Assembly (NCBI GenBank): GCA_001871765.1
Contig: MNVN01000015.1
Location: 52,543 to 116,542 of the forward strand
DNA length: 64,000 nt
Direction of reading: 5' to 3'
Source of the DNA: Candidatus Nomurabacteria bacterium CG1_02_43_90
Lineage (GTDB): Bacteria > Patescibacteriota > Minisyncoccia > Phycocordibacterales > UBA1550
Shown here: positions 2,516-53,313 of the stretch, one piece after another
Layout of the letters: every line of letters starts with the position of its first letter
Numbering within the stretch: position 1 is the first letter of the stretch
Program-made: the position numbers and the translations under genes
The notes under the pieces: model-generated
What the model saw: only the letters and a program-made list of their open reading frames with translations
What the model was told of the DNA's origin: nothing
Databases searched by the model: none

Positions 2516-3304
2516 TTGCTTTATCCCCAAAAATTTGATGTAATGAGGCTAATGCAACCTGACTACCAAATCAAAACAGAAGTATTCGAAGGACCGCTGG
2601 AGCTCTTACTTGACCTCGTGGAGAAACGCAAGCTTTTTATCAATGATATTTCGCTTGCGACGGTTACTGATGATTATGTAGCACACCTCAAGCAGTTTGA
2701 AAAAATGCCGGTGGACTTTGTATCCAACTTTCTCATCGTTGCGTCTACCCTCGTACTCATCAAATCAAAATCCTTATTGCCCTCACTCGACCTGACTCCT
2801 GAGGAAACACAAGACATCGACGAGCTTGAGCGACGCTTGAGAGAATACCAAAAAATACGCGAGCTTGCCGTCGGGCTGAAGCAAATGTTTGGTGCTAATG
2901 TTTCTTTCCCTAAAGGGCAGTCGCGGGAGCGCGCTGTTGTGTTTACCCTGAGCGAAGAGATCACGCTCGCAGGGATCATTGAAGCAATGCAGTCCGTGAT
3001 TGCGCATTTTCCTAAAAAGGTGGCGCTCCCTAAGGTCTTGGTCAAAAAGGTAGTATCTCTCGAGGAGATGATGGATCGCCTCGCTACGCGCATTACTGGG
3101 AGCTTTAAGATGAGTTTCCGTGAGTTTGCAGGGGTAGGGAAGGAAGAAAAGGTGAATATCATTGTAAGTTTTCTTGCTATGCTCGAGCTCGTAAAGCAGG
3201 GGATGATTGCAGTCACCCAGGGTTCTCACGGTGATGATATCCAAATAGAGACTAATGTCGTAGAGACTCCGCATTACGGCAGGTCGGTACCACCTTTGAA
3301 TTAA
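2516..3304 (+). CDS. scpA: segregation and condensation protein A (kleisin); true start probably ATG at 2543 or 2552
   Basis: N-terminal EVFEGPLELLLDLVEKRKLFINDISLATVTDDY typical ScpA motif; size 250-260 aa. Confidence 0.85.
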   Translation: MLYPQKFDVMRLMQPDYQIKTEVFEGPLELLLDLVEKRKLFINDISLATVTDDYVAHLKQFEKMPVDFVSNFLIVASTLVLIKSKSLLPSLDLTPEETQDIDELERRLREYQKIRELAVGLKQMFGANVSFPKGQSRERAVVFTLSEEITLAGIIEAMQSVIAHFPKKVALPKVLVKKVVSLEEMMDRLATRITGSFKMSFREFAGVGKEEKVNIIVSFLAMLELVKQGMIAVTQGSHGDDIQIETNVVETPHYGRSVPPLN

Positions 3305-3310
3305 ATTATT

Positions 3311-3700
3311 ATGAAAAAAAATACTATTTACATTATGGTGCTGGCGGTCGCCGTTTTTATTGCCGGATTCTTTATGTACCTCTTTGCCAAGAATTATAGG
3401 CATTTGCAAAATACTGGTGCATTTCGGTCGACAGTGCACAGTTATCGACAGGCACTAAATGAGCGGGCGCCTATTACGGATCCGCACGCCATTGAATCAT
3501 GGATGACGTTTGATTATGTGAACAAAATGTTCAATCTCCCCGTTAGTTTTTTAAAGACAGAGATGGGAATAACGAGCACGAAGTATCCTCGGCTCACTCT
3601 TTATCGTGAAGCAAAATTGCAACAAATTCCCGAACAACTTTTCCTAGAAAATGTAAAAAATGCGGTTCTTCAATACGCTACTTCAACGCCACAAAAATAA
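3311..3700 (+). CDS. hypothetical membrane-anchored protein
   Basis: N-terminal hydrophobic helix IYIMVLAVAVFIAGFFMYLF, ORF directly follows scpA. Confidence 0.45.
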   Translation: MKKNTIYIMVLAVAVFIAGFFMYLFAKNYRHLQNTGAFRSTVHSYRQALNERAPITDPHAIESWMTFDYVNKMFNLPVSFLKTEMGITSTKYPRLTLYREAKLQQIPEQLFLENVKNAVLQYATSTPQK

Positions 3701-3709
3701 TTATCTTGT

Positions 3710-4303
3710 ATGGAAACAATCCTCGGGTCATTTTTATCATTCCTTCTCCTCTATAAATACACTGCGCTCTTTGTTATTTCTTTTTTTGCTGCGTTCTTAC
3801 TCCCCCTTCCTTCGAGTAGCACCCTCGCTGCTTCGGGGGCGTTTGCTTCACAGGGGTATTTCAGTTTAGTAGTCGTTCTCTTTGTGGCACTTCTCGGAAA
3901 TGTTGTGGGAGATCTTGCTGGATATTTCCTCGCACGACGGTACGGCGAAGGATTTATGAGTAAGATTGGTTTCAAGAAAGTTTTTAGCTCACGCTACTAC
4001 AAGTCTGTCGTTGATTATTTGACGGGAGCTCCGCACTCGCTTATCTTTTTTAGTCGATTCTTGCCTGAAGTAGGTCCTGCGGTGAACATTCTTGCGGGGA
4101 TCACTGGCGTGCCGGTGCGTACCTTCCTCGTCGTTGATATTATTGGCGAAGTTTTTTATGTGCTTTTGTATGGACTCGTTGGTTTTTTTATGGGGAGTGG
4201 GTGGGAGAGCAACATGAGCTTTCTTCTCGAAGGAGGAATGGTTATGCTCTCGCTCGGTATCGTGATGGCCCTCATTCAGTATCTTCTTTTTCGGGCGCGA
4301 TAG
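3710..4303 (+). CDS. dedA: DedA/SNARE-associated family membrane protein
   Basis: Multi-pass hydrophobic profile with ALLGNVVGDLAGYFLARRYG and FFSRFLPEVGPAVNILAGI motifs typical of DedA family. Confidence 0.75.
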   Translation: METILGSFLSFLLLYKYTALFVISFFAAFLLPLPSSSTLAASGAFASQGYFSLVVVLFVALLGNVVGDLAGYFLARRYGEGFMSKIGFKKVFSSRYYKSVVDYLTGAPHSLIFFSRFLPEVGPAVNILAGITGVPVRTFLVVDIIGEVFYVLLYGLVGFFMGSGWESNMSFLLEGGMVMLSLGIVMALIQYLLFRAR

Positions 4304-51830: not shown

Positions 51831-51968
51831 ATAAATAATCGTGATTATTACTCTTTTTAAATTAACAGGAGTACAGTATACCAGTTTTCTATTCTTTGAG
51901 AAATTCCCCGTATAGCCTTATCCACTCCGATACAAAACAAAATAGAATCTAAAAGTATGTCCCTAAAA

Positions 51969-52000
51969 TACAAAAACTCCAACATGTTGGAGTTTTTGTA
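51969..52000. repeat. perfect 32-nt palindrome (A-run/T-run flanked) in AT-rich divergent region
   Basis: tacaaaaactccaacatgttggagtttttgta. Confidence 0.7.
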
Positions 52001-52206
52001 TAACCAATTTAGGTGTACGTAATGTATTACGCAGTTAATGATAATAATAGAATTATAGCATTTTTCCTTTATAAGAATGTACGGCGCGAACATATATTTA
52101 TGAAACTAAACTTTGCTTAGTAGACATACGTCTATGCATGAGAATCCTCTCTATAATTTCCTAGCAGTACCCACATAAACATTTTTTTGGTATAGTTGTC
52201 TCAATT

Positions 52207-52578
52207 ATGAAAGAAAAATTATCGCGATTGTCCATGGCAAATGAATGGTTTATGGGCTTCCTTGTGTTATTCAGTATCTTCATGCTGATTTTTGAAGAAA
52301 CGCACACGGTCACCCCTTATGAAATTCAAATAATCGATGGTATCGACCTCACGATTGCATTCATATTTATGGCAGAGTTTTTTACCGCTCTTTATTTTGC
52401 GCATAATCGCTATTCTTTTTTCAAATCACATTGGTGGGAGCTTCTTGCGACCATTCCTTTTACAAACGCTGCAACACAAGCTCTACGCGTTCTGCGTATT
52501 CTGCGTGTCATAAAAGTCTTTCGTGCGGGAGCACATTTTTCTCTTACCGAACAGAATTATAAAAGCGTAAAAAAATAA
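52207..52578 (+). CDS. stand-alone voltage-sensor domain (S1-S4) protein, no pore module
   Basis: Four TM segments; S2 acidic residue (FMAEFF), S4 with Arg/Lys every third position RVLRILRVIKVFR; ORF stops about 20 aa after S4 and no S5-P-S6 coding potential is present downstream in any frame. Confidence 0.6.
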   Translation: MKEKLSRLSMANEWFMGFLVLFSIFMLIFEETHTVTPYEIQIIDGIDLTIAFIFMAEFFTALYFAHNRYSFFKSHWWELLATIPFTNAATQALRVLRILRVIKVFRAGAHFSLTEQNYKSVKK

Positions 52579-53123
52579 TTCTTACCCAACAAAACCTTCG
52601 AGTACGCGGAGAGAGTTTTCGAATTCTTGTAATTTTCTCTTCATCACTGGAGGAAGGTTGAGTTTCTCGAGCATTCCTTTTTGCTCTTTGTCGGATGTCG
52701 CAAATGGAAAAGGAGGGTGAGAAGCGAATGCTTGTAGCTTCGCAAGGCCGGAGCGCGACGGCGCGAGGCGGGGTCGCGGAATTTCCCAGCAGGAAAATAT
52801 CCGTGATCTTGGGGAGGAATTTTCCATTTGCTCATCTTTTTATTTTGGCGGAATTCGGGGCGGACAAAAATGCAAATTCAAAACCTTTTTATATTGTGCC
52901 TCTACCATTCTACTATTTTTCGTCCACGATCTAAAGGAGACCATCCTCGGCATTCGCCTCGGACATTTCCGCTAGGGCTACTCGCGCCTAGATGTCTAGG
53001 TTTTCTGCTTATCCTCCGCATTCCCGCTCCGCGCGTGCGATTAGTCAGCAGTCGGATTGTTTTGGAAAAAAGTTCGGATTTTGTTCAAGAGACACAGCTC
53101 TGCGAAGAAGTTATCGTTTTTAG

Positions 53124-53162
53124 AAAAATGCGGAGCGTCGCAAAGCGACGCTCCGCATTTTG
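53124..53162. terminator. bidirectional intrinsic terminator immediately 3' of tRNA-Gln
   Basis: aaaaatgcggagcgtcgc-aaa-gcgacgctccgcatttt 14-bp GC-rich stem. Confidence 0.8.
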
Positions 53163-53185
53163 GCGAAAACGGCGATTCTATTTTT

Positions 53186-53259
53186 TGGCTGGGAGGCTTG
53201 GAATCGAACCAAGATTAACGGCTTCAAAGGCCGCTGTCCTACCATTAGACGATCTCCCA
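53186..53259 (-). tRNA. tRNA-Gln (anticodon TTG)
   Basis: Minus-strand sequence TGGGAGATCGTCTAATGGTAGGACAGCGGCCTTTGAAGCCGTTAATCTTGGTTCGATTCCAAGCCTCCCAGCCA: cloverleaf with D-arm, anticodon loop CTTTGAA, T-arm GGTTCGATTCC, encoded CCA; close to E. coli tRNA-Gln architecture (one A-C mismatch at base of acceptor stem). Confidence 0.85.
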
Positions 53260-53313
53260 AAGTTATTTAATTCTCTTTACAAGCACTGATGCAGAATACA
53301 CCAAAAAGGCCTC

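Follow-up and report, generated by a model that had tools for sequence, protein, structure and literature searches.

The region considered here, positions 52579-53127 of a 64-kb stretch of DNA (hereafter the window, i.e., the whole stretch), lies between a small ion-channel-like gene and a tRNA-Gln gene read on the minus strand. From left to right, it successively contains the remnant of a protein-coding gene; positions 318-417 of a repeat that we call the arm, interrupted by an insert; positions 3-144 of a non-coding module that we call 'c'; positions 67-5 of a second arm in inverted orientation; and then a palindromic terminator-like hairpin, followed by the tRNA. In related metagenome contigs, intact arms bracket defence genes in inverted orientation. 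The order of the pieces over 52582-53259 is what two deletions in such a canonical island would leave. We conclude that the region is, very probably, the non-functional scar of a mobile defence-gene island that was integrated at the 3' end of tRNA-Gln. This agrees with the first alternative of the first-pass annotation, made from the sequence alone, i.e., what is left of a degraded mobile element at a tRNA integration site. Its principal reading, a structured RNA gene, does not hold, since the copy is a mosaic of truncated pieces that fold at chance level once the terminator is left out.

The arm has a consensus of ~417 nucleotides (nt), made of an outer module and several hairpins, including hairpins 1 and 2, and containing GGCGGACA; the homology of the window copy to this consensus is clear and partial. 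Using nhmmer profiles (an arm model of 417 nt and a 'c' model of 496 nt), arm positions 318-358 were found on the plus strand at 52673-52717, followed by positions 361-417 (E=7e-11). This arm is cut at 52691, with ~320 nt of its outer part missing, and positions 68-317 are absent from both window copies. Hence, instead of two complete inverted arms, ~100 nt and ~65 nt are left, 160 nt apart, with no gene between them. The segments 52691-52717 and 52809-52866 are contiguous in L001 (L-numbers designate the related loci and contigs compared), where context and orientation are different, so that the 91 nt separating them in the window (module b) are an insert in the loop of a 12-bp hairpin. The strands of this hairpin form the 12-bp inverted pair already noticed in the first-pass annotation, and 108 nt lie between them. 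Module b is the source of the local GC peak and contains a gcgaa...ttcgc pair, also noticed before, at about 52724-52744. It is missing from L001 and from most copies; it reaches 92-96% identity in L145, L134, L049, L116, and L135. Altogether, six loci besides that of the window carry this module, the consensus fold of which has three hairpins with few compensatory changes. The outer module of the opposite arm gave BLAST matches to L046, L122, L080, L124, and L113. It ends at the tetranucleotide CAGC and is fused to 'c' through a microhomology, CGCTCCGCG, at about 53026-53033. Its arrangement on the minus strand, i.e., tRNA, terminator, and outer module, recurs at tRNA-Arg in L088.

Between the two arm fragments, the window holds the first ~29% of 'c', a module of ~500 nt. 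Over 52860-53033, the sequence shares 82-92% identity with at least 15 contigs, in which 'c' directly follows the arm and runs for ~500 nt without open reading frame (ORF). Intact 'c' has a long-range helix of 23 bp, formed by GCCTCGGACATTTCCGCTAGGGC and its complement 270-350 nt away, as well as a GGGGGAAGGA/TCCTTCCCCC hairpin and variable insertions. The window copy is not full-length: the partner strand of the long helix, GCCCTAGCGGAAATGTCCGAGGC, is absent from the window. In an alignment of 13 related sequences, RNAalifold predicted 65 pairs for intact 'c', 15 of them with compensatory changes; 95.4% of the cells are paired, against 39-47% with slid partners, and none of 500 shuffles reached the observed values. 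As only 13 related sequences are available, the evidence that intact 'c' is a structured RNA is moderate. Counted from the alignment, G-U pairs exceed A-C cells (46 against 14), which favors the strand reading from the arm inwards. We also considered that the 23-bp inverted repeat could be an invertible switch and rejected it, all 13 copies being in the same orientation and the internal helices covarying. No Rfam family matches intact 'c'.

Table 1. Features of the window and of the related contigs compared
Feature	Position	Strand	Remarks
3' remnant of a ~305-amino-acid (aa) gene of unknown function	52582..52690	-	last ~35-40 codons and stop
Arm, 5' strand of hairpin 2	52691..52717	+	stem GCAAATGGAAAA at 52700-52711; 96% identity to L001 4389-4415
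Module b, GC-rich insert in hairpin 2 loop	52718..52808	+	91 nt; three hairpins; optional
Arm inner end	52809..52866	+	hairpin 2 3' strand TTTTCCATTTGC (52820-52831), T-run CTCATCTTTTTATTTTGG, end GGAATTCGGGGCGGACA; 95% identity to L001 4418-4475
5' part of module 'c'	52867..53033	+	'c' model positions 3-144 of 496, E=5e-44 (nhmmer)
Parts of 'c' present in the window		+	A-rich spacer; TATATT 52890-52895; helix-1 hairpin; 23-bp helix 5' strand 52956-52978; CCTAG-ATGT-CTAGG 52987-53000; helix 4 5' strand; cut inside helix 5
Outer module of the opposite, tRNA-proximal arm, inverted	53024..53098	-	arm model positions 5-67 at 53096-53024
Palindromic terminator-like hairpin	53115..53171	.	ATGCGGAGCGTCGC-aaa-GCGACGCTCCGCAT at 53128-53158; inverted repeat with 27-nt arms (53115-53141 and 53145-53171), 85% complementary
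tRNA-Gln (UUG)	53186..53259	-	ARAGORN and Rfam; 3' end GCTG at 53188-53191 on + strand
CAGC/GCTG switch points	53095-53098 and 53188-53191; L113 ~3040-3050; L005 ~7428		
Full arm of L088, outside to inside			terminator hairpin; outer module with CCACGCGCGGAGCGCGTGG; hairpin with 13-bp stem; CTGCC hairpin; hairpin 1 (14-bp stem); hairpin 2 (12-bp stem); end GGAATTCGGGGCGGACA
IS110-family element in hairpin 2 loop	L053 ~941-2297; L081 ~2692-4035; L111; L114		
IS110-family element in outer hairpin	L088 209-1590		

The first-pass annotation proposed that 52579-53127 carries a functional structured RNA gene, either new or a divergent form of a known one. Some observations go in this direction: there are several local hairpins (the CCTAG-ATGT-CTAGG hairpin that it listed is indeed present), pairing is conserved where module b and hairpin 2 recur, and parent 'c' covaries in its intact copies. 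Hence, part of the idea stands, as two of the fragments stem from conserved hairpin-rich non-coding modules outside Rfam; the copy itself is not an intact gene. It has only positions 3-144 of the 496 of 'c', without the partner of the main helix, and about 100 of the 417 arm positions, and its left 110 nt are a coding remnant. The region was described as heavily base-paired. Taken as a whole, it does fold better than shuffled sequences (z of -3.4 and -3.6), and this is due to the 17-bp terminator: over 52691-53110, with the terminator left out, z falls to -0.25 on the plus strand (38 of 100 shuffles fold at least as well) and -0.64 on the minus strand (25 of 100). Likewise, the GC richness holds for a ~200-nt core only (GC 0.53, in the top 2.7%). 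The GC content of 52579-53127 as a whole (0.468) compares with a window mean of 0.431 (standard deviation 0.032), and 11% of 550-nt segments are at least as GC-rich.

The absence of any match to known RNAs was borne out by the covariance-model scans that had been recommended, which leave the region unassigned. Scanning the whole window with Rfam 15 at gathering thresholds, nothing but tRNA reached threshold, and relaxing the threshold to E values up to 10 over 52400-53300 added just chance matches on the terminator. RNase P, tmRNA, 6S, SRP, group I/II introns, OLE, GOLLD, ROOL, HEARO, and raiA were all unmatched in these scans, and those of 14 related loci and of intact 'c' returned tRNAs only. 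At the protein level, a six-frame chimeric query with all ORF pieces of at least 24 aa found no homologue among 5.8 billion proteins, and the three longest ORFs of the region have no Pfam match. Comparison with relatives, also recommended, showed that 14 related genomes lack the region at this locus, and nhmmer found neither arm nor 'c' at the tRNA-Gln locus of other relatives. Altogether, we consider a functional RNA gene at this place as very improbable. The first-pass annotation also mentioned an orphan retron-like msr/msd, for which the inverted repeats and the GC-rich hairpin cluster are the sole support. We give this practically no credit, since no reverse transcriptase gene was seen among the neighboring genes, every piece maps to arm or 'c' modules or to the gene remnant, and intact relatives have no reverse transcriptase in their backbone.

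At the left edge, the region was said to contain only ORFs of junk-like composition. Read on the minus strand, its left 110-120 nt are in fact the genuine 3' end of a conserved gene of 305 aa. By tblastn, residues 266-305 of the L018 protein align at 52704-52585 with 90% aa identity (E=3e-19), and the first ~265 codons are missing. Within the region, only 52582-52704 (minus strand) thus behaves as a pseudogene, the other frames being without homologue. The full-length gene is found in L018 and L019; in relatives, a convergent gene of 305-308 aa directly follows the Ion_trans gene, and the remnant has kept this convergence with the ion-channel-like gene. Orthology at the DNA level with L018 (90%), L019, and L020-25 breaks off at 52690. 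The junction between remnant and arm lies in a T-rich microhomology (52673-52690), and its k-mer was found in four independent metagenome contigs (L026-L029).

On the right side, the predicted terminator shared with tRNA-Gln, noticed from the start, and the tRNA-Gln itself were confirmed (Table 1). The palindrome at 53128-53158, bordered on either side by A and T runs, would be an intrinsic terminator according to its features. A simple terminator scan listed neither this palindrome nor hairpin 2, because their loops and stems exceed its limits. Down from 55142, L157 matches the window at 100% identity as far as 53188 and is unrelated beyond, and L156 ends at 53188. Since a strain variant diverges there, the 3' end of tRNA-Gln is the border of variable DNA: the element has its edge exactly there, and strains differ in what occupies the site. 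The tRNA-side half of the palindrome with its flank (53145-53187, 43 nt) forms a unit also present in L113 and L005. In the window and in L005, GCTG links this flank to tRNA-Gln; in L113, it links the flank to the outer module of an arm beside a serine-recombinase gene; and in the window, the outer module meets a third sequence at this tetranucleotide. The two arm ends of L088 have GCAC, which on the right-hand side is the 3' end of tRNA-Arg. Judging from these sequences, the GCTG and GCAC junctions may have been made by the recombinase.

Several other observations were made at this border. The CAGC/GCTG switch point is common to three types of junctions (flank with tRNA-Gln, flank with arm outer module, and another sequence with arm outer module). 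In the window, the two inverted cores are 95 nt apart, and the sequence separating them has a perfectly palindromic center; the L113 and L005 versions are imperfect. In other Candidatus Yonathbacteria, partial extra tRNA-Gln segments are found near tRNA-Gln (L007 7377-7406; L005 7144-7204; L012 7183-7206), as att-like leftovers that suggest repeated integration at this tRNA. We also considered as an att repeat a copy of the tRNA 3' end at 52784-52799; it is inverted and identical at 13 of 16 positions, and was judged a chance match.

The wider locus gives the frame of these comparisons. The dnaX-tRNA-Gln gene order is kept in 13 of the 15 closest related loci, and the DNA beyond tRNA-Gln is different in every one of the 15. 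The DnaX protein of the window is short (350 aa), with 95% identity to that of L001, from a Candidatus Paceibacterota metagenome-assembled genome (MAG), and 64-75% identity to those of Candidatus Yonathbacteria genomes. This places the host, with a GC content of 43%, in the Candidate Phyla Radiation (CPR)/Patescibacteria. We ruled out that the upstream Ion_trans gene is itself truncated and that the region represents its decayed 3' half: the protein, encoded at 52207-52578 on the plus strand, has 123 aa and covers S1-S4 only (profile positions 5-113 of 241), and its homologues, in four clusters from related CPR contigs, all have 102-123 aa. It looks like a stand-alone voltage-sensor-like domain and not like a truncated channel. 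Further upstream, the window has an AT-rich gap of 350 nt (51857-52200) where, between the nitroreductase and ion-channel-like genes, L018-L025 carry a DoxX/MauE gene and L018 also a GT4 glycosyltransferase gene; this gap is a second deletion near the first. In L020 (4640-4790), which belongs to the same MAG as L001, the 305-aa gene is split by a GC-rich insert of ~140 nt holding two perfect hairpins, CCACGCCCCTCTGGGGCGT and CCTCGGGGCTTTGCCCCGAGG, which points to a further small, structured insertion element of these genomes.

The intact islands were collected through exact matches to the 19-mer at 52813-52831, located in the inner end of the arm. At least 120 metagenome contigs with at least 146 copies were found, both counts being lower bounds, and taxonomy is attached to a minority of these contigs. 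Among the matches listed, 25 of the 26 contigs with two copies have them inverted, 2.0-11.1 kb apart. The inverted arms, 340-450 nt long, are 99-100% complementary over 100-341 nt, and 'c' often comes after one of the two. Contigs often end inside them: the arms are a repeat that breaks assemblies. Between the arms, we mostly found restriction-modification and other defence genes, as an exchangeable cargo. This cargo includes methylases (N4/N6 and C5 types, with 18 loci for one cluster; LexA-fused; EcoRI-type), nucleases and regulators (HNH, REase, GmrSD, Mrr, and XRE controller (C) proteins), AAA_5/VWA genes, and a nucleotidyltransferase with a transmembrane partner, which resembles cyclic-oligonucleotide-based antiphage signaling systems (CBASS) by architecture only. 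Just outside one arm, at least 12 contigs carry a gene for a large serine recombinase (490-590 aa, with Resolvase, Recombinase, and Zn_ribbon_recom domains), mostly divergent from the adjacent arm. The 3' end of this gene abuts tRNA-Leu in L073, tRNA-His in L135, and tRNA-Gln at the dnaX locus of L011; tRNA genes border the islands of L088, L063, L073, L135, and L125. One serine-recombinase family is found in both orientations to the arm, with genes directed either towards it or away from it (L104 2228-4158 and L081 894-2692 versus L139, L073, and L113), which implies either inversions or two orientations of integration. Neither the literature searched nor Rfam contains a description of the arms or of 'c'. 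The parent family represents widespread and apparently undescribed structured repeats in tiny groundwater bacteria.

The full arm is best described from L088 (Table 1). On the inward-reading strand, a T-run comes after hairpin 1 and another after hairpin 2, and both loops carry TTTGGGGARRGA. The stem of hairpin 1 exists in compensatory variants (GGCAAA/TTTGCC, GCGAAA/TTTCGC, GCCAAA/TTTGGC, and GCGGAA/TTCCGC). In the window, hairpin 2 with its T-run CTCATCTTTTTATTTTGG has, on the plus strand, the predicted shape and the features of an intrinsic terminator. We tested the arm loops as programmable guides: the hairpin 1 loop is complementary to CCAAAAAATAG beside the tRNA, but this match is an A/T run, and the idea was rejected because the loops are invariant across islands located at tRNA-Gln, Arg, Val, Ala, and Leu. 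In one copy (L043:46-316), the hairpin 1 loop is reverse-complemented (TCCTTTCCCCAAAAAATAG instead of CTATTTTTTGGGGAAAGGA) between unchanged stem arms, which is a flip/flop-like inversion of the 19-nt loop. The arm is itself a target for IS110-family elements (356-366 aa, DEDD_Tnp_IS110 and Transposase_20 domains), found in the hairpin 2 loop of four contigs at a single position, GGGGTT^TGGGG. A non-coding end of ~250 nt adjoins the junction. This targeting looks site-specific and, presumably, guided by a bridge RNA.

These last features could also describe a dispersed repeat. Indeed, the arms might be REP/BIME-like elements (repetitive extragenic palindromes, bacterial interspersed mosaic elements), or resemble miniature inverted-repeat transposable elements (MITEs), unlinked to any recombinase-driven island, and the window would then hold one decayed copy. 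The mosaic composition with optional modules, the site-specific insertion of IS110-family elements in arm hairpins, as in REPs, and the flipped loop all fit such repeats. Against this reading, a 435-kb contig has just about two copies (L067, L086), the copies are paired in inverted orientation around defence cargo with the regularity given above, and they are recurrently adjacent to serine recombinase and tRNA genes. The 64-kb window itself contains no second copy detectable by self-similarity and no further arm or 'c' by profile; the other matches to GCAAATGGAAAA are chance matches inside genes, and pattern scans of viral contigs returned only chance matches. We thus regard a simple dispersed repeat as unlikely, and an island scar as the far better description of the region.

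Some observations weigh against this island origin. Of 'c', the window copy keeps only a minor part, and it has lost cargo and recombinase (none was found in the window by tblastn with five island recombinases); its membership of the island family rests on fragment homology, as neither recombinase, nor cargo, nor second complete arm is present. The role proposed for the serine recombinase derives from adjacency only; its orientation to the arm varies (L104 and L081 versus L139 and L073); L088 and some other islands have no recombinase within the contig; and long inverted arms are not a normal need of serine integrases. The exact 19-mer query over-represents near-identical arms, which biases the contig sample and under-powers covariation tests on the arms. 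Finally, the junctions over 52785-53187 are found in no independent contig, identical contigs stopping at 52729-52784 and at 53188.

This last point raises the question of an assembly chimera: ~52785-53187 could have been joined across a repeat, the real genome having there a complete island with its cargo, or another sequence. Four window-identical contigs end at 52729-52784 and two others end or diverge at 53188, in a family where arms break assemblies everywhere, and the inner junctions have no supporting record, including in exact-protein look-ups of four spurious ORFs spanning them. However, the junction between 'c' and the outer module rests on a microhomology of ~8 nt, too short for a de Bruijn mis-join, which argues for a real deletion. 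Moreover, arm, 'c', and inverted outer module are ordered and oriented relative to the tRNA as a simple internal deletion leaves them. A chimera is in our opinion improbable.

We therefore propose the following scenario for the scar. Integration at tRNA 3' ends would be the work of a serine recombinase acting on a short core, which is GCTG/CAGC here. Two tandem inward-pointing terminators (hairpin plus T-run) in each arm would insulate the cargo, and the two arms, being inverted, would offer homology allowing cassette exchange without loss by deletion. In the window, at least two deletions at microhomologies would then have occurred, one fusing the truncated neighboring gene to the middle of the left arm, and the other joining 'c', after its first 29%, to the outer end of the right arm. 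The remainder of 'c', most of the sequence of the two arms, the cargo, and the recombinase would have been lost in the process. The sole plausible surviving function may be to terminate transcription of the ion-channel-like gene upstream, through hairpin 2 and its T-run. Concerning the intact parents, 'c' could be a transcribed regulatory or maintenance RNA. More tentatively, it is possible that these parents are element-borne structured RNAs of a class new to CPR bacteria and to science, i.e., the ~500-nt 'c' and a multi-hairpin arm transcript of ~400 nt ending in tandem terminators, both carried on serine-recombinase defence islands, the window copy being dead. Intact 'c' and arm RNAs might control cargo expression or play a role in island recombination or maintenance.

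For annotation, the consequence is that the region is debris and that no gene should be called there. For biology, the interest lies in the parent family. To our knowledge, CRISPR is missing from most CPR bacteria, which depend on restriction-modification systems; if these are exchanged by means of a dedicated vehicle, this would help to explain immune diversity in such reduced genomes. The family would, in addition, provide a new candidate for a structured RNA and perhaps new att sites for serine recombinases.

Among known systems, the closest ones are the tRNA-integrating islands with defence cargo. Tycheposons of Prochlorococcus (10.1101/2020.12.28.424599) and pipolins (PMC11551731) share with the present islands variable DNA starting exactly at a tRNA 3' end, a small, exchangeable, defence-rich cargo, a recombinase at the border (here, a large serine recombinase), and decayed remnants at tRNA sites. 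The present islands differ from them by near-identical, hairpin-rich inverted arms of 340-450 nt instead of short direct att repeats, by the ~500-nt covarying non-coding module that many of them carry, by a recombinase located outside the arms, by the absence of both PolB and tyrosine integrase, and by their CPR hosts. In terms of architecture, the closest systems are MITE-flanked composites and invertase segments. MITE- or insertion sequence (IS)-flanked composite transposons and the Mu G/Gin and Hin segments also have two inverted copies of a non-coding repeat bracketing a cargo, and a serine recombinase gene immediately outside one repeat. In the present islands, by contrast, we found no transposase matching the arms and saw no target-site duplications, the recombinases are large and of the integrase type and not small invertases, neither 'c' nor the cargo was ever seen in both orientations, and the cargo consists of whole defence operons and not of a switchable promoter or tail-fibre gene.

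Neisseria minimal mobile elements (MMEs) and the defence hot spots of phages P2/P4 have conserved flanks around highly variable restriction-modification or defence cargo, like the present islands; in both cases, homologous recombination between flanks is a plausible route of exchange. In contrast, the flanks are here non-coding structured inverted repeats and not conserved host or phage genes, and they travel with the cargo to different tRNA loci. As for the RNA, intact 'c' (~500 nt) resembles HEARO/IscB omega RNA, GOLLD, ROOL, and the IS110 bridge RNA by its large size, by being element-borne and GC-rich in an AT-rich genome, and by its covarying helices and variable insertions. In contrast to these non-coding RNAs, 'c' matches no Rfam family and does not lie beside an IscB, TnpB, or IS110 gene; and the arm loops stay the same at different tRNAs and show no programmable-guide behavior. 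In conclusion, the parent family is set apart from known systems by its long structured inverted arms, its 'c' module, and its CPR hosts, and it credibly carries a new structured-RNA candidate.

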